Virus record (IMG/VR): IMGVR_UViG_2541047745_000011
Location: 1 to 43,359 of that record
DNA length: 43,359 bases
Source: a virus
Taxonomy: Duplodnaviria; Heunggongvirae; Uroviricota; Caudoviricetes
Strand: one strand, 5' to 3'
Part shown: positions 1,295-43,359 of the stretch, one piece after another
Layout of the letters: each line of letters begins with the position of its first letter
How positions within the stretch are numbered: the stretch's first letter is position 1
Translations under genes and position numbers: made by a program
Notes under the pieces: model-generated
Seen by the model: only the letters and a program-made list of their open reading frames with translations
What the model was told of the DNA's origin: nothing
The model's database searches: none

Positions 1295-3415
1295 TCATTT
1301 CACCACCCAACCAGAATTCCAGCGACCTGATTCTTTGATGTAGAGTCTTCCATTTACGATATCTCGATACTCGCTTCCAGGTGTGGCTATTTGTACTCCT
1401 TCAGGATTTCCAGTGCCAGCAATTATACTGTAACTAACGTCTGTGGCTAAATTCCTAACAATGTTAGCAGGAGGGTAAACGTTATCTGCAACAATAATAT
1501 TTGAGCAACTTGCTGTTACATCTACAAAAAACTCATTGCTTATCGAGTTGTGATAACAGTTGTTACTAATCACACCATTTTTAGCAGATGAATCAATACC
1601 TATAACTGCGTCTCCAGCTACAGATTCAAATGAATTTGATGTCACAGTGAATCCGTGGCATTCGCAGTTAATATGGACAGCTCTTCTTCCGTTCATTGCT
1701 GTATTACCTACAATTGATATGTTTCTACTTAACAAAGTTCCTTTGTATTCGCCATCATCCTCAAATATATAGAATATCGCCTTAGCCGTATCAACTTTAT
1801 TGTTGCTTGCAATCACATTAGCAATGTAATTCCCTCTAAGGAATATCCCATTACATGAATCGACTGTGTTTCCAGTGATGGAAACTCCGTCAACCCATCT
1901 CATATCAAGAATGGAGCCATCACAGGACTCAAAATTATTTCCTGATATCCTCCAGTCTCTGTGAAATATTCTACTACCTTCCAATCCGCTCTCAATAAAT
2001 GTTGGTGTAAGGCATGATATCACAGAATTTCCAGTGCAATTTTTAAATGTATTATGATGTATACACACATCTCTTGATGTTTCCCGAAGAGTTGTGCTTA
2101 CTTTCCTCCCGGTAAATATTATTGCTGGATTAGTGAAATTTATAAATGTGTTTGAACCAATGTCAACATTTTCCCACCTAGAAAAGCCACGAATGCCAGA
2201 ATAAGAATTACCATCAAAAGTACAATGGTGGATTTTTATATCAATAACTGGCTGCGCTCCATCTGTTGAACCGTGATTCCCTACGCCAACAGCCCATGAC
2301 GGTAGAGATTCTGACGGTCCAAAATAACAACCAGACACTTTAATGCTAGCGATATTATCATTGCTGGACAATGGTGTTTCAATCTGAATAGCATCTGAAA
2401 AACCTCTGTTACCTGCCCAATCCATAAACCCCATAAAACGGCAGTTTTCAATATTAACATTTCTCACGCGAGACAAGTCTATAGCATGCGCCCCTGAAAC
2501 ATTAAGGAATGTGCAATCCCGAAATATAATCCCATTAGTAAAAACAAATTCAAATATACTGGCTTGGTTTTTGTATATATTGCCATTGTTATTAAAAACA
2601 CCACCAAATACAGATATATTATTACCACATTCGACTTCAGATGTGTATATGCAAGCAAATGTATTTACACCTGTGTCTGAATTATCAAAAGCACGAATAA
2701 TAGTTGCACCTCGTAGATGTAAACTTGTGTTTGAGTATATCATTATTTTTTTTGTTATTTTTATAAGCCATTCACTACGAAAGGTTAAATTCAAACATCC
2801 GTTTATCTTTGCGATATTTAAAGCATTCTGTAAGGCATCGCTATCGTCGCTTACACCATCACCTGTAACCCCAAACCATGACGGTGAAACCTCATTCCCG
2901 TAAACCCTCTTCCACCTTCTACCGTTAAAACCTACAAGAATTGTTCCGTCATTATCTTCTGATGTCGTATCTGTTGGGTCAGCATAGAACACCCCATCAC
3001 CGCCATCGAACAAATTATTTCTTCCATAACAGATTATTTTGTCATTTGTGCCATTATATGAACGTATGTCTGTATAATTACCACCTCCTAAATACGATAC
3101 CCCGTCAATCTGATTTAGTTTCTGCTGAAACATGTCTGGATCATACTTCAGCACATTAGGAAAATAGAATTGCTGCGCTCCATACGCATCATATACAGCC
3201 ATAGAATGGCCTTGCACGGTTACGAATTTGGCAATCTGTCCGTTATATACCGGATATCCAGCAGCGTTAATGATGATTGGTTGCGAAACAGGGATGTGAG
3301 AACCGTCTTCGTTCTCCACATAAACCTGAATCTGGTTTTCAGGATTTACCGGGTCAGTGTCAATTTTACCGATATAAATTTTGCCATTAGCTACGGCTTT
3401 AAAAGAACGCGCCAT
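1295..3415 (-). CDS. Tailspike protein body (706 codons), P22/Sf6-type head-binding N-domain plus beta-helix receptor-binding domain; native first 18 codons separated by IS1
   Basis: N-terminus [40 protein letters not shown] matches residues ~19-60 of P22 gp9 / Sf6 tailspike; remainder is Asn/Ser/Thr-rich, beta-helix-like. Upstream of the ATG is the IS1 end, not a native RBS. Confidence 0.85.
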
Positions 3416-3432: not shown

Positions 3433-3936
3433 TTATTGATAGTGTTTTATGTTCAGATAATGCCCGATGACTTTGTCATGCAGCTCCACCGATTTTGAGA
3501 ACGACAGCGACTTCCGTCCCAGCCGTGCCAGGTGCTGCCTCAGATTCAGGTTATGCCGCTCAATTCGCTGCGTATATCGCTTGCTGATTACGTGCAGCTT
3601 TCCCTTCAGGCGGGATTCATACAGCGGCCAGCCATCCGTCATCCATATCACCACGTCAAAGGGTGACAGCAGGCTCATAAGACGCCCCAGCGTCGCCATA
3701 GTGCGTTCACCGAATACGTGCGCAACAACCGTCTTCCGGAGCCTGTCATACGCGTAAAACAGCCAGCGCTGGCGCGATTTAGCCCCGACGTATCCCCACT
3801 GTTCGTCCATTTCCGCGCAGACGATGACGTCACTGCCCGGCTGTATGCGCGAGGTTACCGACTGCGGCCTGAGTTTTTTAAATGGCGGAAAATCGTGTTG
3901 AGGCCAACGCCCATAATGCGGGCGGTTGCCCGGCAT
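3433..3936 (-). CDS. insB: IS1 transposase InsB reading frame
   Basis: Translation [25 protein letters not shown]...[12 protein letters not shown] matches IS1 InsB. Confidence 0.9.
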
Positions 3937-5789: not shown

Positions 5790-7787
5790 CTATTCTGACA
5801 ACGCATCAGACTTAGCCCCCTGAGTAAGGGCGTTAATGGCCTTTTGCGCCTGCTGCATGGCTTTCTCAAACGCTGTTGATCCGCGTGGGGTGTTTGCCAT
5901 TCGGAGCATTGCATTTCTGAATGGCTCGCTCTCATAGGCGCGAGTAAGAAGTCCGTAGCTTACTGCTGCGCCAGTTGTAGCCGGGTTCATTGCCGTCCCA
6001 TACCCAATTATGAACGGGATAGTTTGCTGCCCTGTGGGTGTTGTTACTGCCGCTTTTGCAGCCTGCTGCGTGGATTGCAGGTAGTTTTTTAATCCTTTCA
6101 GATAAGCAGCGTCCTGCCCCTTAAATGTGATGCCAGTCTGGTTTTGCAGGATGTTAAGCTGCCGAAGGAACTGGTCAGGGGATCCGCCAGATTTCTCCAT
6201 CGCCTTTCCAATGATGCCATTGCGCATTTGCGTCCTGCCAACACGACCAACTGAGTTATACAGAGTCTTAATTTCCGATTTGTTCTTGCTGAATAGCATG
6301 TTGTTGACAACTTCCGGCGTCAGGTCGCCTTTCATGAGAACATTCTTCAGCCTGGTATTCTTTAGTTTCGCCGCTTCGTCAGCGTAGACGGCATTGGCCT
6401 GCTGATATTTACGGAGAGTATCGTTGCCAAGATTCTGACCAATGGCACCATTGATATCGTCGGTCATTGCCTTGTAAACGCGCTGAATGGCAGCATCGGA
6501 ACGGTTTGGTAACACTGGTCGCTCACCTTTCACGTCCATTCTGAACTGGCTGCGCAGGTCGCTTAATTGCTTCAAATCCAGATTTACCGGACCATCAGGA
6601 CCAGCATTGCGAACAAGTTCATCACGATATGATTGAAGTTTTGAAATAGTCTCGTTATCAGCAACCTTACCAAGCTTCTGCAGGTTAGATATCTCAGTAT
6701 CAATCTGCTGAATTGCTCGCGCAGGCTGGATATTGACTCCCGCCATTGCATTCTGAACCTGCTCAAGACGGTTCCCTGCAGCACGACGAATTCCTGATGT
6801 TTTCGCTTTAAGGCTGTCAATAACAACAGCTGGATCATACTCCCCGAATTTATTGGCAAATCTCTGCACCAACTGGCTTCTCGCTTCCTGTTGCGTTGCT
6901 CTCATTCCGCTTGTGCCAGCCAGAGGGATATTTTCTGCTGTAGTCTGCGCCATTTTTCCGACGCGGGAAGTAGGTTGTAACAGGTCCGTGGTGTGCAGAG
7001 GAACTCCTTCACGCTCTGCAAATCTGATAGCCTGCTGCGCTTCTGGCGCAATAGCACCGCGAACGCCACGATAAGCAGCACCTAATCCACGTCCAGCAGC
7101 GTTAATAGCACCGCCAGCCAGCACACCAACGCCTAAATCGGTGGCGAGGGCTTCCGCATCATCTTTCGCACTATTTGCAGCAAGTGATCCAACTGCGTTT
7201 TCTGCGAGAAGTCGTGTTGCCCCCTGAGCAATTCGACCAGCAAGTGTTGGTGCCTGTGCCGCCGCTCTCTCAACGCCAGCAGGAGTGAGGTAAGGCAATG
7301 CTTCAGCAAATACCCTTCCCTCTGTCGTTTGTGGAGTCAGCGCGCCTTGCTGAAGGCCAAAGTCCTGCTCTAATCCCTGCGTTGTTACTCGTGGCGCTGG
7401 TTGATATGTACCATCGCCAATGCCGAGTTTACCGCCAGCCCAAGCCGCCGCGCTTGTTACAGCATCTGCAACTGATGCAGGTATGTTTGCCACGTTCACG
7501 CCAGCCTGCACCAGTCCGCGACCAGTCTCTTTCACTGCTTCACCAAGATCAGACATAAATCCACTTTGCTGTGGTTGTTGCTGTGCTACTGGTTGCTGTG
7601 TATCCACTGGCTGCACAGATGGCAATGGATAGGCAGCATAGAAAGCTTGCTTAGCCTGCTCTGCATTTTCTCCGGCTTGCGGGGCCACGACTTCATTGAA
7701 GTATTGCTCCTGAGCCTGCGCTTTTTGTTCTGGTGCTAACGCCTGATACTGTGGAGAGGCGATAACATCTTTCCATGCTTTAGCCAT
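5790..7787 (-). CDS. Ejection (injection) protein, P22 gp16-like
   Basis: 665 aa, Ala/Gln/Gly-rich; last gene of the ejection-protein block in P22 gene order 14-7-20-16. Confidence 0.7.
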   Translation of the reverse strand: MAKAWKDVIASPQYQALAPEQKAQAQEQYFNEVVAPQAGENAEQAKQAFYAAYPLPSVQPVDTQQPVAQQQPQQSGFMSDLGEAVKETGRGLVQAGVNVANIPASVADAVTSAAAWAGGKLGIGDGTYQPAPRVTTQGLEQDFGLQQGALTPQTTEGRVFAEALPYLTPAGVERAAAQAPTLAGRIAQGATRLLAENAVGSLAANSAKDDAEALATDLGVGVLAGGAINAAGRGLGAAYRGVRGAIAPEAQQAIRFAEREGVPLHTTDLLQPTSRVGKMAQTTAENIPLAGTSGMRATQQEARSQLVQRFANKFGEYDPAVVIDSLKAKTSGIRRAAGNRLEQVQNAMAGVNIQPARAIQQIDTEISNLQKLGKVADNETISKLQSYRDELVRNAGPDGPVNLDLKQLSDLRSQFRMDVKGERPVLPNRSDAAIQRVYKAMTDDINGAIGQNLGNDTLRKYQQANAVYADEAAKLKNTRLKNVLMKGDLTPEVVNNMLFSKNKSEIKTLYNSVGRVGRTQMRNGIIGKAMEKSGGSPDQFLRQLNILQNQTGITFKGQDAAYLKGLKNYLQSTQQAAKAAVTTPTGQQTIPFIIGYGTAMNPATTGAAVSYGLLTRAYESEPFRNAMLRMANTPRGSTAFEKAMQQAQKAINALTQGAKSDALSE

Positions 7788-33317: not shown

Positions 33318-34215
<898 letters not shown>

Positions 34216-34339
34216 TTAAAAGACAGGCATACTAATAAACACTGCACTGTGTATTCATTCCAACGAGTGAATACACGGAGCAATGTCGCTCGTAACTAAA
34301 CAGGAGCCGACTTGTTCTGATTATTGGAAATCTTCTTTG

Positions 34340-34364
34340 CCCTCCAGTGTGAGGGCCTTTTTAT
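34340..34364 (+). terminator. Rho-independent terminator (tL-like) upstream of cIII
   Basis: GCCCTC-cagtgt-GAGGGC followed by CTTTTTA. Confidence 0.5.
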
Positions 34365-34428
34365 ATGCATACCAATAACGCTTCACTTGAGGCGTTTTCG
34401 TTATGCAATCAAATATAAGGAGTTACCC

Positions 34429-34563
34429 ATGATGCACTTTCAGCTCGCGGGTAGCGGCGTCATGTCCGCTTTCTACCCGCACGAATCTGAATTATCACGC
34501 CGAGTTAAACAATTAATCAGAGCAGCAAAGAAACAACTGGAGGCGTTATGCGCAATGAAATAG
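34429..34563 (+). CDS. CIII-like protein (FtsH inhibitor family), tentative
   Basis: 44 aa with AAGGAG RBS; amphipathic segment PHESELSRRVKQLIRAAKKQLEAL resembles the lambda CIII core; not in ORF track as separate start. Confidence 0.45.
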   Translation: MMHFQLAGSGVMSAFYPHESELSRRVKQLIRAAKKQLEALCAMK

Positions 34564-34700
34564 CCATCAATCACCAGATGCTTCGTGCAGCACAAAACAA
34601 AGCAGTAATAGCCAGATTTATTGGTGATTCAAAAATGTGGCTTGAAGCAAATAAAGCGATGAAATCAGCTATCAACCTTCCGTGGTATCGCAGGAAATGA
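34548..34700 (+). CDS. Kil-like small protein, tentative
   Basis: 50 aa, MRNEIAINHQMLRAAQNKAVIARFIGDSKMWLEANKAMK resembles lambda Kil (..IATFIGDEKMFREAVDAYKK) from memory; below track size cutoff. Confidence 0.45.
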   Translation: MRNEIAINHQMLRAAQNKAVIARFIGDSKMWLEANKAMKSAINLPWYRRK

Positions 34701-34781
34701 GTTTTACAGATAACTGGTCAGACGAAGAATTCATTCGTCAGATGAACAAAATGCTCAATCAGCACAAAGAACAGGAGAAAG

Positions 34782-35093
34782 ATGATGATTCTGACTCTGA
34801 ATGATAAGCGTGAAATATCGCAAATAATCGCAAGTTTTACTGATGAAGATTACGAGCGAATCAACAGTGAAGTTGATCGCCTCTGCAAACGTTGCGACCC
34901 AATAAGCGAAATGCTTCGCTCATATAAACCAGATGAACACACTAAGGACGCTATCGACTGGCTGGAAGATGATGACTGTAACTATCAGGAAAAAGCCGCT
35001 GAATGGTTCTGGGATGCAATAACCGAAAGAGTTAAGGCTGAATATGCCTTCGCAATATTCAAACGCAGACATATTTATGGAGAAGCTGCATGA
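34782..35093 (+). CDS. Hypothetical acidic protein coupled to recT
   Basis: 103 aa; stop overlaps recT start (ATGA). Confidence 0.4.
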   Translation: MMILTLNDKREISQIIASFTDEDYERINSEVDRLCKRCDPISEMLRSYKPDEHTKDAIDWLEDDDCNYQEKAAEWFWDAITERVKAEYAFAIFKRRHIYGEAA

Positions 35094-36001
35094 GCAATAT
35101 CGTTGAATTCGTTAAACAGCAAGAGCAGTTATTCTGCGGAGCATTGACTGAACAGACGGTGACATGGGCTAAGGAAAGCCAGTTTGCAATTCAGTATTTC
35201 CAGAAAAACGATTACCTGGCTAAAACAGCACTGGCAAATCCAACCAGCGCACAGAACGCCATCATCAACGTTGCGGCGATCGGCATCACCTTAAACCCTG
35301 CAAGCAAACTGGCTTATCTAGTTCCGCGCGATGGCATGGTTTGCCTTGATATCAGCTATATGGGATTGCTTCATATTGCAATGGAGTCTGGTGTTATCTC
35401 ATGGGGTCAGGCAAAACTTGTTCATGCTAACGATACCTATGAGTCAAACGGGCTTGATAAAGCACCAACCCATAAATACAACGCCTTCGGTGATCGTGGT
35501 GATATCGTTGGCGTTTACTGCACAGTTAAGACGCCGGCAGGTGATTATCTAACGGAAGAGATGAGTCTGGCTGAAATTGAGGCTGTAAGGAAAACAAGCA
35601 AGGCGGCATTCAGCGATAAAGGACCATGGGTAAATCACTGGAATGAGATGGCGCGAAAGACGGTCGTAAAGCGTGCAAGCAAGTATTGGCCTAAGGCATC
35701 ACGTCTTGATAGTGCTATTCACGTACTAAACGAAGAAGAAGGTGTGTGGACTGAACCAGTTATGCCGCACAAATCAGAGGAAGATATCCGCGAAGATGAA
35801 CGGAAACGCCAGCAGGAAATAATGGATAAAGCACAACTTCTTTGCGATGAAATGGCTCAGGCAGAAAACATGGACGATTTGAAGCGATATTTTGCAGAAG
35901 CATATCGCCTGACATCTGGAATGAAATTGCAGCAGAACGTACAAGCCATTTACGCAGAATGCAAAGCGAAACTGGAGGTTGCCAGTGAGCAAACTATATG
36001 A
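35090..36001 (+). CDS. recT: RecT-family single-strand annealing recombinase
   Basis: SDKGPWVNHWNEMARKTVVKRASKYWP resembles the RecT motif ..GPWVTHWEEMAKKTAIRRLFKYLP. Confidence 0.85.
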   Translation: MSNIVEFVKQQEQLFCGALTEQTVTWAKESQFAIQYFQKNDYLAKTALANPTSAQNAIINVAAIGITLNPASKLAYLVPRDGMVCLDISYMGLLHIAMESGVISWGQAKLVHANDTYESNGLDKAPTHKYNAFGDRGDIVGVYCTVKTPAGDYLTEEMSLAEIEAVRKTSKAAFSDKGPWVNHWNEMARKTVVKRASKYWPKASRLDSAIHVLNEEEGVWTEPVMPHKSEEDIREDERKRQQEIMDKAQLLCDEMAQAENMDDLKRYFAEAYRLTSGMKLQQNVQAIYAECKAKLEVASEQTI

Positions 36002-36467
36002 AATTGCCAATGAATACGCAAAATTGATGGATTCAGATTTAGAACCAGAGATGATTGCTGACACAATAGAAGGCATGGAAGGAGAATTTACCGATAAAAT
36101 AGAGCAACTTCTTTCCATTATTAAAAATGAATCTGGTTATGCCGAACGCCTCAAGGAAGAGGCAAAGTCACTGAATGAGCGAGCCGCAGTAATTCAAAAT
36201 AAGATTGACAGCATCAAATCATATATAGCGTCATCGCTTGAAATGGTTGGCAAGAAAAATATTCGAGCAGGTATTCACCAGGTAACAATCCGCAAACCGT
36301 CAGAAACTGTAGAAATCATCGACTCAAGCGCCCTTCCTCCTGAATACGTTGAGTTTGAAACGACAATTAAAGCCGACAAACTGGCAATCAAACACCAACT
36401 AAAAGCAGGAATAAATATCCCCGGCGCTCAACTCAAAGTTGGGAAACCTTCACTTCTTATCAAATAA
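35979..36467 (+). CDS. Hypothetical coiled-coil protein downstream of recT
   Basis: 162 aa overlapping the recT 3' end; N-terminal coiled coil then beta-rich region; family not resolved. Confidence 0.35.
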   Translation: MPVSKLYEIANEYAKLMDSDLEPEMIADTIEGMEGEFTDKIEQLLSIIKNESGYAERLKEEAKSLNERAAVIQNKIDSIKSYIASSLEMVGKKNIRAGIHQVTIRKPSETVEIIDSSALPPEYVEFETTIKADKLAIKHQLKAGINIPGAQLKVGKPSLLIK

Positions 36468-36478
36468 CGGTATCGCCT

Positions 36479-36793
36479 ATGAAAAAGACTCCATGGGAGA
36501 AATGGGAAGTCGATTTCTTGCGCGAAGTAGCGGCGACAATGCCAGTTGAAGTTATCGCTGAAAAACTGGAAAGGACTGAAAAAGCAGTAATGGCGAAAGC
36601 AACAAGGATTGGCGCTGACATTGTTAGCCGACTTCGTGGAAGACGCTGGACAAGAGCCGAAGTATCACTTTTCGGTAAGTTCTCCGCAGAAGAAATAGCA
36701 ATTGCAACCTGCCGCTCAATTTATTCAGTAAGAGCTATGCGATACAAGCTAAAAAAACTCGATGAAGAAAGAGAAGGCATACGAATAAATTAA
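36479..36793 (+). CDS. Hypothetical protein
   Basis: 104-aa ORF in PL operon. Confidence 0.4.
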   Translation: MKKTPWEKWEVDFLREVAATMPVEVIAEKLERTEKAVMAKATRIGADIVSRLRGRRWTRAEVSLFGKFSAEEIAIATCRSIYSVRAMRYKLKKLDEEREGIRIN

Positions 36794-40040: not shown

Positions 40041-40976
40041 ATGACAACTTTCACCGACAAAGAACTGATTAAAGAAATCAAAGAGCGCATAGGCAGCCTG
40101 GACGTTCGAGACAATATTGAGCGCCGTGCTTATGAAATTGCACTGGCATCACTGGAAGCAAAACCAATAGGTGCATTCCACATTGCAGAACAGCAAGTTG
40201 ACGGCACAAGTGACTACCTCAAGGATGGAGAATGGCCTATTGATAATGGGATTATTGAAGTATACGCCGCCCCTCCAATGCCAGTAGTACCTGAAGAAAA
40301 ACCAATGCCCAACCCTCTTAAAATGTACGCGGTCGATGCTGTTGCCGCTATTGCAGAGGTGAGAGGCTGGAATGCCTGCCGCGCCGCCATGCTTCAGGGT
40401 GTCGAACCTGCAAGTAATCATGAAGAGTTGTCAGAGGAGAACGGATCATCGCTTCAATTGCGCAATTTAATCCGGCAGCGCCATGCTGAATGGTCAGATA
40501 AGACGTTTGGCTGTGTTGGTCCAGTTGGCCCGCTGAAACATCTCTCAAAAGAGGCACTGGAAGCCGCAGCCGAACCAGACGATCTTAGCGAGTGGGCTGA
40601 TATGCAGTTTCTGTTGTGGGATGCACAGCGCCGTGCTGGCATCAGCGATGCTGAAATTACCGCTGCTATGGAAGATAAATTGAAGATCAACATGGAGCGC
40701 CAGTGGCCTGAGCCAAAAGATGGTGAGCCTCGCTTGCACATTAAAGAACCCGGCAACTCTCCGGTAACTCCGGATGGTTGGATAAGCTGTAGTGATCGAA
40801 TGCCGGATACCAAAACAGCCGTTCTTGTTGCCGTGGAGTTTGACAGGAAAGGTGACTGGCGAATGAAATGGGCGACTTACATCCCGGGTCATCCTGACGC
40901 TAATGATGGGTGGATAATTCCTGGTGCGTCGTGGAAACCGTCACACTGGATGCCGCTACCAGAGCCTCCACTTTGA
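40041..40976 (+). CDS. DUF550/DUF551-type prophage protein (putative MazG-like nucleotide pyrophosphohydrolase domain)
   Basis: 311 aa; segment RQRHAEWSDKTFG...EWADMQFLLWDAQRRAGISDAEI resembles DUF550. Confidence 0.5.
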   Translation: MTTFTDKELIKEIKERIGSLDVRDNIERRAYEIALASLEAKPIGAFHIAEQQVDGTSDYLKDGEWPIDNGIIEVYAAPPMPVVPEEKPMPNPLKMYAVDAVAAIAEVRGWNACRAAMLQGVEPASNHEELSEENGSSLQLRNLIRQRHAEWSDKTFGCVGPVGPLKHLSKEALEAAAEPDDLSEWADMQFLLWDAQRRAGISDAEITAAMEDKLKINMERQWPEPKDGEPRLHIKEPGNSPVTPDGWISCSDRMPDTKTAVLVAVEFDRKGDWRMKWATYIPGHPDANDGWIIPGASWKPSHWMPLPEPPL

Positions 40977-41252: not shown

Positions 41253-41317
41253 TTTATTTATTCATATATGAAAACAATGTAACCAATATTCGAATTGAAG
41301 AACTGAAAGAACACCAA

Positions 41318-41339
41318 GCCGCCTGATGGCGGTTTTTTA
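41318..41339 (+). terminator. Rho-independent terminator at the end of the PL operon
   Basis: GCCGCC-tgat-GGCGG followed by TTTTTTATT. Confidence 0.7.
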
Positions 41340-41348
41340 TTGCCTGAT

Positions 41349-41364
41349 TTGCAGGTTCGATTCC
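41349..41364 (+). other. tRNA T-arm-like fragment TTGCAGGTTCGATTCC (5' part of a tRNA 3' half)
   Basis: 16-nt match to a canonical tRNA T-stem/loop, consistent with tRNA-Arg argW from memory; no 5' tRNA body upstream. Confidence 0.5.
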
Positions 41365-41383
41365 CTATTCGGAGATAGCACTC

Positions 41384-41584
41384 ATGCAACACGAACTACA
41401 ACCTGATTCACTGGTTGATTTGAAATTCATCATGGCCGATACTGGCTTCGGTAAAACCTTCATCTACGACCGGATTAAGTCCGGCGACCTGCCAAAAGCC
41501 AAAGTTATCCACGGGCGAGCAAGATGGTTATATCGTGACCATTGTGAATTCAAAAATAAGCTCTTAAGCCGCGCCAATGGGTAA
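41384..41584 (+). CDS. alpA: AlpA-family excisionase-like regulator
   Basis: 66 aa, LVDLKFIMADTGFGKTFIYDRIKSGDLPKAKVIHGRARWLYRDHCEF, typical AlpA/Xis HTH; GGAGATA RBS. Confidence 0.8.
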   Translation: MQHELQPDSLVDLKFIMADTGFGKTFIYDRIKSGDLPKAKVIHGRARWLYRDHCEFKNKLLSRANG

Positions 41585-41657
41585 AATAGCGGGTAAAATA
41601 TTTTTCACATCTAAAAAACACCATTCCAATCAATCCCCTGCCGCGTCAAGTAGATGT

Positions 41658-41672
41658 CTGCAGGGGACACCA
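41658..41672 (+). other. tRNA 3'-terminal fragment CTGCAGGGGACACCA, candidate attR core
   Basis: Sequence of a tRNA acceptor 3' strand plus ACCA, consistent with argW 3' end from memory; flanked by GGGTAAAATA direct repeats at 41579-41600 on the phage side. Confidence 0.55.
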
Positions 41673-42111
41673 GATACCCTTCAAACGATATCTACCTTCA
41701 CCCCGTAAAAGATAAGTTTGGCAGCACATTTGCCCTATCTACTCATTTTTCCTGCAACAGGTTGAAATCTCAACACGGTCAGAAAACGCTGATGACTAAA
41801 CAGCCCTGGGCTGGGCGATGTAACCATCACACACAATCCTGATCGCGAAATATGGCGTGACTTGATACTTCACTCCACAATGCTTTCCTTGATGAATTCG
41901 CAGGCCCGTGATACACGGGACAGGTCGCTGAATTACGACAATGCCCTGGAAATCAGCGAGCCGTGTATCCGGAGTACATTTGAGCGACTGTACCAGAACA
42001 TGAATGAGGCGTTTGGATTAGGCGATTATTAGCAGGGCTAAGCATTTTGGTATTATTATTTTCCGGTTGAGGGATATAGAGCTATCGACAACAACCGGAA
42101 AAAGTTTACGT

Positions 42112-43359
42112 TTATATTGCTGAAGGTACTGGCGTTTCCATCACTATTTGCTCACGTTTTTTACTCAGGAAGAAAATGCCAAATAGCAACATCAGGCAGA
42201 CAATACCCGAAATTGCGAAAAAAACCGTCTGGTAGCCTGCGTGGTCAAAGAGTATCCCAGTCGGCGTTGAAAGCAGCACAATCCCCAACGAACTGGCAAT
42301 TTGAAAACCAATCAGAAAGATCGTCGACGACAGGCGCTTATCAAAATTTGCCACGCTGTATTTGAAGACGGATATGACACAAAGTGGAACCTCAATGGCA
42401 TGTAACAGCTTCACTAATGAAATAATCCAGGGGTTAACGAATAGCGCGCAGGAAAGGATACGCAACGCCATAATCACAACACCGATAAGTAATGCATTTT
42501 TTGGCCCTACCCGATTCACAAAGAAAGGAATAATCGCCATGCACAGCGCTTCGAGTACCACCTGGAATGAGTTGAGATAACCATACAGGCGCGTTCCTAC
42601 ATCGTGGGATTCGAATAAACCTGCATAAAAGACAGGAAAGAGTTGTTGATCAAAAATGTTATAGAAAGACCACGTCCCCACAATAAATATGACGAAAACC
42701 CAGAAGTTTCGATCCTTGAAAACTGCGATAAAATCCTCTTTTTTTACCCCTCCCACATCCGCCGCTACGCACTGGTGTTCCTGCTCTTTAAAACGCATGT
42801 TGATCATCATAAATACAGCGCCAAATAGAGAGACCAACCAGAAGTTGATATGGGGACTGATACTAAAAAATATGCCAGCAAAGAATGCGCCAATAGCATA
42901 GCCAAAAGATCCCCAGGCGCGCGCTGTTCCATATTCGAAATGAAAATTTCGCGCCATTTTTTCGGTGAAGCTGTCAAGCAAACCGCATCCCGCCAGATAC
43001 CCCAGACCAAAAAAGAGCGCCCCCAGAATTAAACCTACAGAAAAATTGCTTTGCAGTAACGGTTCATAAACGTAAATCATAAACGGTCCGGTCAAGACCA
43101 AGATGAAACTCATACACCAGATGAGCGGTTTCTTCAGACCGAGTTTATCCTGAACGATGCCGTAGAACATCATAAATAGAATGCTGGTAAACTGGTTGAC
43201 CGAATAAAGTGTACCTAATTCCGTCCCTGTCAACCCTAGATGTCCTTTCAGCCAAATAGCGTATAATGACCACCACAGCGACCAGGAAATAAAAAAGAGA
43301 AATGAGTAACTGGATGCAAAACGATAGTACGCATTTCTGAATGGAATATTCAGTGCCAT
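42112..43359 (-). CDS. cscB: Sucrose:H+ symporter CscB (LacY-family MFS permease), host chromosomal gene
   Basis: 415 aa, MALNIPFRNAYYRFASSYSFLFFISWSLWWSLYAIWLKG..., 12 predicted TM helices; ATG at window end. Confidence 0.8.
   Translation of the reverse strand: MALNIPFRNAYYRFASSYSFLFFISWSLWWSLYAIWLKGHLGLTGTELGTLYSVNQFTSILFMMFYGIVQDKLGLKKPLIWCMSFILVLTGPFMIYVYEPLLQSNFSVGLILGALFFGLGYLAGCGLLDSFTEKMARNFHFEYGTARAWGSFGYAIGAFFAGIFFSISPHINFWLVSLFGAVFMMINMRFKEQEHQCVAADVGGVKKEDFIAVFKDRNFWVFVIFIVGTWSFYNIFDQQLFPVFYAGLFESHDVGTRLYGYLNSFQVVLEALCMAIIPFFVNRVGPKNALLIGVVIMALRILSCALFVNPWIISLVKLLHAIEVPLCVISVFKYSVANFDKRLSSTIFLIGFQIASSLGIVLLSTPTGILFDHAGYQTVFFAISGIVCLMLLFGIFFLSKKREQIVMETPVPSAI

Follow-up and report, generated by a model that had tools for sequence, protein, structure and literature searches.

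The window, i.e., the whole stretch of 43,359 nucleotides that was analysed, is a P22-like E. coli prophage. Its recombination genes lie in the N-antiterminated early-left operon, downstream of cIII (PF08134) and kil (PF06301), which occupy positions 34324–34700 (+) and form the upstream operon context outside the recombination module. The order cIII, kil, module is common to lambda, P22, phi80, and HK639. The first-pass annotation had described a RecT gene between two small overlapping genes, and all three open reading frames (ORFs) are present where it had placed them. Two further members of the module, an Abc1-family gene (36479–36793) and a 35-codon ORF (34697–34804), had been missed.

The central gene (35090–36001, +) encodes a RecT-family single-strand annealing protein of 303 residues. 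It matches Pfam PF03837 with E = 3.7e-32 and 111.9 bits (cut-off 24) over profile positions 5–186 of 198, and the phage RecT family TIGR00616 with 82.4 bits (cut-off 52.65). It is not an equivalog of Rac RecT, as the NF007351 score of 101.8 is below the cut-off of 296. The product is a phage annealase, and its ssDNA-annealing or strand-exchange activity is predicted from family membership. Residues 1–219 (35090–35746, +) form the core, which is 59% identical to the core of phi80 Rec. Residues 220–303 (35747–35998, +) form a C-terminal tail that appears to be partner-specific. In a comparison of four Gp157-partnered and four Exo-partnered related sequences, the tail was conserved only among RecTs with Gp157 directly downstream (50–52% identity) and found no match in the Exo-partnered RecTs, despite cores that are 49–59% identical. 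This co-variation of the tail with the downstream partner (Gp157 or Exo) hints at a physical link; it could also be mere linkage of neighbouring DNA.

The downstream gene (35985–36467, +) encodes a protein of 160 residues that belongs to the Siphovirus Gp157 family (phrog_253, E = 7.6e-54; PF05565, E = 2e-37 and 129.1 bits with a cut-off of 28.6, full length over profile positions 1–162 of 162). The ORF is open from a TTG at 35979, which the first-pass annotation had taken as the start of a 162-codon gene, but GGAGG at 35974–35978 directly abuts this TTG. The GTG at 35985 is spaced 6 nt from GGAGG, and the gene begins there in the Kapi1, HK140, and PGAP annotations (483 nt, 160 aa). Hence, GTG 35985 is the better start, and the RecT and Gp157 genes overlap by 17 nt and not by 23 nt. 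The search returned 248 homologues, with 62–97% identity among the matches listed. In the AF2 model (pLDDT 84.6), a 68-residue helix leads into a beta hairpin, and the C-terminal part is loosely structured. A fold search of BFVD matched only Gp157 or "resistance protein" models, and the structure searches overall yielded nothing beyond generic coiled coils and further Gp157 proteins. Gp157 genes nearly always adjoin an annealase gene. Relatives in Klebsiella, Staphylococcus, Lactobacillus, and Bacillus phages adjoin Sak4, Sak, or Erf with no nuclease annotated nearby, and the same association of Gp157-family genes with annealases has been described (PMC8093625). In the Firmicutes phages of that study, Gp157, Gam, DUF1351, and DUF2483 genes are found beside erf or sak4, with an SSB rather than a nuclease in the vicinity. 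Gp157 usually lies 5' of Sak4 or Erf in these phages and is accompanied by SSB, whereas in the window it lies 3' of RecT without SSB.

The upstream gene (34785–35093, +) encodes p103, an acidic orphan protein in the position of lambda gam (phrog_3486, E = 1.7e-59). The ORF is open from 34782 and has two ATGs in succession at its beginning; public annotations place the start at 34785, for a product of 102 aa. The stop codon of this gene and the start codon of RecT overlap by 4 nt (ATGA). No match to p103 was found in Pfam, NCBIfam, or PADLOC. The family is small, with 48 cluster representatives among 1.84 billion and identities down to 27%. Its members have a median pI of 4.66 and a net charge of about −9, and the pI of p103 itself (4.65) is close to that of GamL (4.70). 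The AF2 model is all-helical and of low confidence (pLDDT 55). On sequence grounds, both the p103 and the Gp157 ORF are real genes.

Two smaller genes complete the cassette. p104 (36479–36793, +) is a basic, helix-turn-helix-like protein of 104 aa. It matches phrog_323 (E = 4.5e-20), as do P22 Abc1 (E = 1.3e-23) and Mu gp9 (E = 5.2e-29), which places it in the P22 Abc1/Mu gp9 family. BLASTP detected Mu gp9 (E = 5e-5) and gave no match to P22 Abc1. p104 and Gp157 occur together in 79 of 80 related loci, and both consistently accompany this RecT. Between kil and p103 lies the acidic micro-ORF of 35 codons (34697–34804, +; phrog_17766, E = 7.6e-16, and phrog_2123). It can be read as "orf40" from GTG 34682, but ATG 34697 is the likely start, and Kapi1 carries it as an annotated CDS of 108 nt. 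Its product has a pI of 4.2 and has an SDEEFI motif in common with P22 Arf, at E = 0.19 only. The micro-ORF was found in 73 of the 80 related viral loci.

The first-pass annotation had noted that RecT lacks a partner exonuclease, and this holds. We searched the whole window by tblastn with ten phage nucleases (lambda Exo, phi80 Exo, the exonucleases of ENT47670 and Midgardsormr38, three YqaJ, two DUF3799, and SEN22 exoVIII). The best hit had E = 0.098 and lay outside the module, which rules out a nuclease hidden elsewhere in the prophage. A Pfam scan of the early-left ORFs revealed no nuclease either.

The module had been suggested to be non-canonical, a description that does not stand. According to a 2025 Genome Research survey (PMC12315714), a nuclease is missing in 84 of the 246 enterobacterial lambdoid Rec modules, and modules with an anti-RecBCD function and an annealase but neither SSB nor nuclease form a named class, the "P22 type." The module of HK140 is described there as combining a type 4 annealase with MuGam and lacking both nuclease and SSB. 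The window module shows the P22-type combination, its anti-RecBCD component being assigned through the MuGam call that the survey makes for the HK140 homologue of Gp157. HK140, mEpX1, Kapi1, Gally, and Louie share this gene content and gene order with 97–98% nucleotide identity and essentially no difference. Hence, the cassette is an unremarkable phage recombination module that has been catalogued before, and the window holds another copy of it. The survey, in its description of the HK140 module, does not name p103, the ORF of 35 codons, or the gene of the Abc1 family among the members. The small acidic gene upstream of RecT is the sole unexplained part of the cassette, and it sits where other phages keep a RecBCD inhibitor.

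More distant modules differ in some of these parts. In HK639, RecT and Gp157 are 68% and 62.5% identical to those of the window and follow kil in the same order, but GamL replaces p103. In Dewey, RecT (97%) and Gp157 (99%) are nearly the same, again in the same order after kil, and lambda Gam replaces p103. The gamL-rec-exo genes of phi80 and the gam-bet-exo (Red) genes of lambda resemble the window in that they are early-left genes that follow kil and in that a small acidic protein is encoded directly 5' of the annealase. They differ in having a 5'-3' exonuclease 3' of the annealase where the window has Gp157, and the RecT C-terminal tail is unrelated. The arf-erf-abc1-abc2 genes of P22 share with the window the absence of a nuclease, a gene of the Abc1 family (phrog_323), and a very short acidic ORF ahead of the annealase region. 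However, the P22 annealase is Erf and not RecT, and its RecBCD modifier Abc2 has no homologue in the window. In Mu, the Abc1-family gene gp9 adjoins the gene of the end-binding protein Gam, as p104 adjoins Gp157, but the gene order is reversed, there is no annealase, and Gp157 belongs to a different Pfam and PHROG family than Mu Gam, and homology is unproven.

Taken with this class, the module is probably a P22-type lambdoid Rec module that combines a phage annealase with anti-host-nuclease functions, lacks a phage exonuclease, and is expressed from the N-antiterminated early-left operon. Gp157 would act like Mu Gam, as a coiled-coil dimer that binds the ends of duplex DNA and shields the linear injected genome and rolling-circle tails from RecBCD. 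The C-terminal tail of RecT may dock on Gp157 as the tail of lambda Beta does on Exo, and RecT would thereby be delivered to protected ends. Single-stranded DNA for RecT could be supplied by host nucleases such as RecJ or by replication forks. p103 would be a second host-directed inhibitor, acting on RecBCD or SbcCD as an analogue of lambda Gam and phi80 GamL, and the Abc1-like p104 may have a helper role that is dispensable, like that of Abc1 in P22. DNA-end sealing by Gp157 would, however, conflict with the resection required by RecT.

The link between Gp157 and Mu Gam is weak but consistent at the sequence level. PHROGs labels phrog_253 as Mu Gam-like, and the survey assigns the HK140 homologue to the anti-RecBCD MuGam type, a typing for which PSI-BLAST, HMMs, and AlphaFold 3 were used (PMC12315714). 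With hhalign, Gp157 and Mu Gam aligned over 118 collinear columns (E = 1.3e-3, probability only 18.8%). Both alignment searches, with a diverse Gp157 alignment and with a Mu Gam alignment, recovered mostly close relatives, so this profile-profile test was shallow (Neff about 3). PF07352 matched 3 of 12 Gp157 family members. It matched a 62%-identical relative over nearly its full length (E = 0.0034, 17.8 bits, cut-off 28.3) and did not match the Gp157 of the window, which thus falls outside the Mu Gam profile. BLASTP of Gp157 against Mu Gam gave E = 0.6. The Gp157 profile misses the solved Gam structure 2P2U, whereas the Mu Gam profile finds it with E = 1e-11, and sequence and profile searches of the PDB with Gp157 and p103 gave only coiled-coil noise.

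Given such values, the label "Mu Gam-like" could be a coiled-coil annotation artefact. Gp157 would then be an annealase mediator or loader, i.e., an adaptor that brings the annealase, be it RecT, Sak4, or Erf, to a host factor, for instance SSB, an exonuclease of the host, or the replisome. This would agree with the generic results of the structure searches, with a Mu Gam similarity under every curated threshold, with the annealase that is almost always next door, and with the co-variation of the RecT tail, which fits a dedicated protein partner. Nevertheless, we consider it doubtful. The alignments with Mu Gam, weak as they are, run over the full length, cover the non-coiled C-terminal part, and show the shared motifs GK...G....R.PS and (I/V)xG..(L/V)K.G. 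The Abc1-family neighbour is also found in Mu, and the published typing arrived at MuGam independently. Moreover, in locus L205, Gp157 directly follows a RecE-like exonuclease with no annealase before it. The same locus rules out that Gp157 is a strict substitute for the exonuclease.

For p103, the evidence comes from position. In all 13 loci with readable neighbours, its homologue lies directly 5' of the Rec module with a stop/start overlap of 1 or 4 nt, and the first module gene is translationally coupled to it. p103 is small and acidic, lies 3' of kil, and directly precedes annealase or nuclease genes, as expected for the gam slot. The equivalent slot holds lambda Gam in Dewey (63% identity to lambda Gam) and GamL in HK639. 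By its slot, p103 is therefore a candidate host-nuclease inhibitor. Similarity does not add to this: hhalign gave a probability of 16.8% over 25 columns with the lambda Gam family and 10.5% with GamL, the PDB searches did not return 2UUZ or 5MBV, and BLASTP against lambda Gam, GamL, Arf, Abc1, and Abc2 found nothing significant. The PHROG of p103 is phrog_3486 and not phrog_1050.

The first-pass annotation had suggested that the flanking genes may encode an inhibitor of RecBCD or host nucleases and an accessory factor, to be checked by domain searches. This proposal stands in part. The downstream protein is identified as Gp157 and is classed as Mu Gam type (phrog_253; PMC12315714), and p103 occupies the slot of lambda Gam and GamL. 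Both labels stay putative, as the Gp157/Mu Gam tests are sub-threshold and p103 has neither a Pfam match nor significant similarity to Gam, Abc2, or any other known inhibitor.

An extended reading, which we put forward tentatively, is that p103 (phrog_3486) represents a third, unrecognised type of gam-slot inhibitor that acts on RecBCD and/or SbcCD, can be exchanged for lambda Gam or phi80 GamL, and is coupled to whichever gene opens the Rec module. Separately, the RecT tail would be a swappable docking domain for Gp157 instead of an exonuclease, and Gp157 an end-bound RecT loader. Alternatively, p103 could be a RecT-specific cofactor comparable to Arf, which accompanies Erf in P22, and not an inhibitor of host nucleases. 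The invariable coupling to the next gene, the presence of RecT as the coupled gene or the one after it in most of the 13 loci, and the missing similarity of p103 to known inhibitors would suit such a cofactor. However, the coupled gene is sometimes a nuclease instead of RecT, and homologues of p103 also precede modules with no detected RecT: in SEN22, the homologue is followed by exoVIII and a 189-aa protein, in L211 by a 167-aa protein and YqaJ, and in L205 by the RecE-like exonuclease and Gp157. As true RecBCD inhibitors fill the same slot in Dewey and HK639, we regard the cofactor role as unlikely.

It is highly improbable that p103 or Gp157 is an unrecognised exonuclease with a novel fold, which would make the module a canonical exonuclease-annealase pair: expectation and positions that match those of Exo or YqaJ in related cassettes speak for it, but neither protein has a nuclease match in Pfam, PHROG, or NCBIfam, neither model (a long helix with a small hairpin for Gp157, all-helical at low confidence for p103) has the mixed alpha/beta core of PD-(D/E)XK or DnaQ, and p103 homologues co-occur with real nucleases in several loci while a Gp157 homologue directly follows one. 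Thus, the check for an exonuclease fold or nuclease signature in the flanking proteins by profile searches, AF2 models, and tblastn was negative for both.

The module itself adds nothing new, as Rec modules without a nuclease are frequent among lambdoid phages and the exact cassette is present in several sequenced coliphages. If p103 inhibits RecBCD or SbcCD, however, it would define a new family of small inhibitors of use in recombineering or linear-DNA protection, and the scoring of phages such as SEN22 as having "no anti-RecBCD" would change. If the RecT tail binds Gp157, this would account for the way in which annealases change partners in the course of mosaic evolution.

PADLOC gave no match, so a defence-system reading is not indicated. 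Chi sites are over-represented in phages with a recombinase but without a RecBCD inhibitor. The window contains a single Chi site in 43 kb and hence no enrichment, which mildly favours the inhibitor-encoding class. In a 99.7%-identical prophage, the PGAP annotation lists no exonuclease in the early-left operon or the displayed nin/Q region, and the nin region encodes NinB and RusA.

The assignment of 35090-36001 (+) as RecT is secure, with a match to PF03837 at E = 3.7e-32 and a TIGR00616 score above the cut-off. The gene of the upstream 102-aa protein (p103; 34785-35093, +) ends in an ATGA that is shared with the RecT start. Downstream, the reading frame is open from TTG 35979, which is abutted by a Shine-Dalgarno sequence, GGAGG (35974-35978). 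The first-pass annotation had started the gene there; three independent annotations start it six bases further on at GTG 35985, giving a protein of 160 aa (35985-36467, +) and a 17-nt overlap with RecT. Both small ORFs flanking RecT are members of conserved protein families and hence genes, not chance ORFs.

Searched against the whole window by tblastn, none of ten phage exonucleases (types lambda Exo, YqaJ, DUF3799, and RecE) scored better than E = 0.098, and lambda Gam, GamL, Abc1, Abc2, Erf, and Beta gave no significant match. Pfam detected neither a nuclease nor an SSB in twenty ORFs of the early-left region and its neighbourhood. In a 99.7%-identical prophage, PGAP annotated no exonuclease within the early-left operon or nin/Q region shown; its nin region carries NinB and RusA. 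The exonuclease searches, Pfam, and PGAP thus confirm the earlier observation of a RecT without partner exonuclease between two small overlapping genes. The module has an annealase gene, no nuclease gene, and a constant escort of Gp157 and an Abc1-family protein.

It had also been proposed that this arrangement is non-canonical. Kapi1, HK140, mEpX1, Gally, and Louie all carry the four-gene cassette (102-aa gene, RecT, Gp157, Abc1-like), with a nucleotide identity of 97-98%. Of the 80 closest viral contigs, 79 have RecT, 79 the Abc1-like gene, and 77 the 102-aa gene. A 2025 survey of 325 lambdoid phages describes HK140 by name, with an annealase of sequence type 4 and MuGam as anti-RecBCD, and without a phage nuclease or SSB (PMC12315714). 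According to the same survey, 84 of 246 enterobacterial Rec modules are without a nuclease gene, and a "P22 type" class with 46 members consists of anti-RecBCD and annealase only (PMC12315714). On this description, the cassette is an already known module type and not a non-canonical one; the earlier reading was largely right in spirit and overstated the oddity. Only two leads are left, the orphan protein in the gam slot and a possible contact between the RecT tail and Gp157.

Gp157: The downstream protein is a full-length member of the Siphovirus Gp157 family (PF05565, E = 2e-37) and falls into phrog_253, labelled "Mu Gam-like end protection" in PHROGs. Relatives occur in 572 phage records, with hosts including Streptococcus, Vibrio, Staphylococcus, Lactobacillus, Listeria, and Escherichia. 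In four of five diverse records examined, an annealase gene is adjacent to Gp157 or close to it, and no nuclease is annotated in the vicinity: Sak4 in Klebsiella VLCpiS13c, Staphylococcus StauST398-5, and Lactobacillus Lc-Nu, and Sak, one gene away, in Bacillus TP21-L. The fifth, a Streptococcus thermophilus phage, has it next to genes for a helicase and a DNA-binding protein. The proximity to annealases was also reported in a survey of these proteins in Firmicutes, in which Gp157, Mu Gam-like, DUF1351, and DUF2483 genes are listed as occupying equivalent positions beside erf and sak4 (PMC8093625).

Profile-profile comparison aligned Gp157 and Mu Gam over 118 collinear columns, nearly all of both proteins, with common motifs in the non-coiled part (E = 1.3e-3, probability 18.8%, from shallow alignments). 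Pfam Phage_Mu_Gam was matched by 3 of 12 family members; an enterobacterial Gp157 62% identical to ours covers positions 13-147 of 149 (E = 0.0034). As an independent test of the link, these similarities are weak but coherent. The Abc1-like gene directly after Gp157 (36479-36793, +) belongs to phrog_323 alongside P22 Abc1 and Mu gp9, and Mu gp9 lies directly upstream of Mu gam. The same neighbour beside Gp157 and Mu gam is a further contextual hint. That Gp157 works like Mu Gam is therefore the leading, unproven reading; its membership in the Mu Gam family is not established. In PHROGs, phrog_323 is labelled "transcriptional regulator, D5-like" (here and at loci L005, 1483-1782, and L209, 4971-5255), which masks its sole genetically studied member, Abc1, an aid to P22 recombination.

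RecT tail: Over the core (residues 1-219), RecT shares 74-82% identity with its counterparts in HK639 and two metagenomic cassettes of the Gp157 type, and 49-59% with the Exo-partnered RecTs of phi80, ENT47670, Midgardsormr38, and the related locus L207. For the last 84 residues (220-303; 35747-35998), identity is 50-52% among the Gp157-partnered RecTs; BLAST gave no match to the Exo-partnered set, which has a distinct common tail of its own, unrelated to the former. PDB entry 6M9K shows the lambda Beta tail fragment in complex with lambda Exo, and 7UJL shows the same fragment with SSB. By analogy, the pattern suggests that the tail is a partner-docking domain through which RecT may contact Gp157. 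In this small, phylogenetically related sample, mere linkage of neighbouring DNA is an equally good explanation.

p103: p103 is the only part of the cassette that this literature leaves out. It has no match in Pfam, NCBIfam, PADLOC, or PDB and belongs to phrog_3486 (PHROGs category function-unknown). Its family has 48 cluster representatives among 1.84 billion proteins and is uniformly acidic (median pI 4.66, net charge about -9); the AF2 model is all-helical and unreliable (pLDDT 55). We compared nine metagenomic or genomic loci (homologues 27-41% identical) and three phages. The surroundings of p103 are notably uniform in these: cIII/kil come before it wherever those genes are visible, and a recombination module begins immediately after it. 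The composition of this module differs, with, in gene order, RecT and Gp157, a RecE-like exonuclease and Gp157, DUF3799 and RecT, RecT and YqaJ or Exo, exoVIII and a 189-aa protein, or a 167-aa protein and YqaJ. At 13/13 loci, the window included, the p103 stop and the start of the following gene share 1 or 4 nt, and its conserved C-terminal E-(A/V)-A codons hold the next gene's Shine-Dalgarno sequence.

In Dewey and two viral contigs, a true homologue of lambda Gam (63% identity) occupies the gam slot, followed by RecT, Gp157, and Abc1-like proteins 97%, 99%, and 98% identical to those of the window. HK639 has GamL in this slot, then RecT (68%) and Gp157 (62.5%), and phi80, with the same RecT core type, has the order gamL-rec-exo. 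Similarity of p103 to lambda Gam or GamL is not significant: a 25-column DDDxxFQE-type motif is in common with the lambda Gam family (probability 16.8%), and the full-length alignment with GamL is weak (10.5%). As p103 is independent of the annealase or nuclease type that follows, genomic context favours a host-directed, Gam-like role, which we hold tentatively, at somewhat under even chances. A RecT-specific cofactor would fit the coupling to RecT and is unlikely given the modules that differ downstream. In Salmonella phage SEN22 (3498-5510), a 96% identical 102-aa protein precedes exoVIII, a 189-aa protein, and an Abc1-like gene; this module type is scored as without an anti-RecBCD gene in PMC12315714.

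Between kil and p103 lies a very acidic 35-codon ORF (34697-34804, +), in a position similar to that of P22 Arf, the Erf cofactor. The two have an SDEEFI motif in common, which is not significant (E = 0.19), and the ORF matches phrog_2123, labelled "recombinase" in PHROGs. Several related loci have a gene of ~320-340 aa a few genes before the gam slot (phi80, 5844-6812; L201, 73-1044; L202, 2256-3260; L210, 1791-2810; L217, 1765-2736). By size and position, the phi80 counterpart is Agt/Mog, annotated "anti-toxin for Gam".

The window is a P22-like (Lederbergvirus-type) E. coli prophage, and virion genes of CUS-3, Kapi1, and Gally match its left 24 kb. In the immunity region (~31.2-33.6 kb), a cI-like repressor and a lambda-type N are encoded on the plus strand, and the minus strand has a cII-like gene and a gene in the cro position. 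Starting at N, the rightward early-left operon includes cIII, kil, the RecT cassette, and Ead/Ea22-type genes up to ~41 kb, and a host MFS transporter gene occupies 42112-43359. In the scanned interval, all plus-strand terminator-like sites are at or before 34396, upstream of cIII, and none is within the cassette. Judged from the sequence, the cassette is expressed within this operon and translationally coupled throughout.

In the mechanism we propose, Gp157 dimers would cap duplex ends and exclude RecBCD, and RecT would be recruited via its own tail. Single strands would come from host nucleases or replication forks, and p103 may be a second block on host nuclease. In a P22-like phage with headful packaging, the module would mainly serve to circularise the terminally redundant genome and to protect rolling-circle tails. 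One Chi site occurs in 43 kb against 1.3 by chance, i.e., there is no enrichment. Chi enrichment marks recombinase-positive, inhibitor-negative phages (Bobay et al.); hence, its absence mildly fits an inhibitor-encoding phage.

N and cIII are separated by a 167-aa gene (33634-34137, -) that runs antisense to the early-left operon, where P22, lambda, and HK140 carry sieB. It has CxxC...CxxC spacing in its C-terminus, no match in Pfam or PADLOC, and may be a superinfection-exclusion moron. The tyrosine integrase (1-1158, +) is at the virion-gene end, pointing inward; the opposite boundary (41271-42112), beside the host MFS gene, is the early-left operon end and is without integrase. This layout would fit an attP between xis and int, as the Kapi1 record layout suggests.

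An IS21-family element (23569-25370, +) encodes an IstA-like transposase (rve and HTH domains, 340 aa) and an IstB ATPase (260 aa, PF01695, E = 7.7e-112). The element has an HNH-endonuclease gene (22501-23013) to its left and further ORFs to its right; it is on the opposite strand, and the prophage may be disrupted here. The second IS of the prophage, an IS1 transposase fragment (3433-3936, -; PF03400, E = 2.3e-78), adjoins a 706-aa ORF (1295-3415) that is read as the tailspike from its position and the annotations of matching phages. A 311-aa ORF (40041-40976, +) fuses two domains, dATP/dGTP pyrophosphohydrolase (PF04447) and DUF551; in E. coli strain 317, whose prophage is near-identical, the two names are on separate ORFs.
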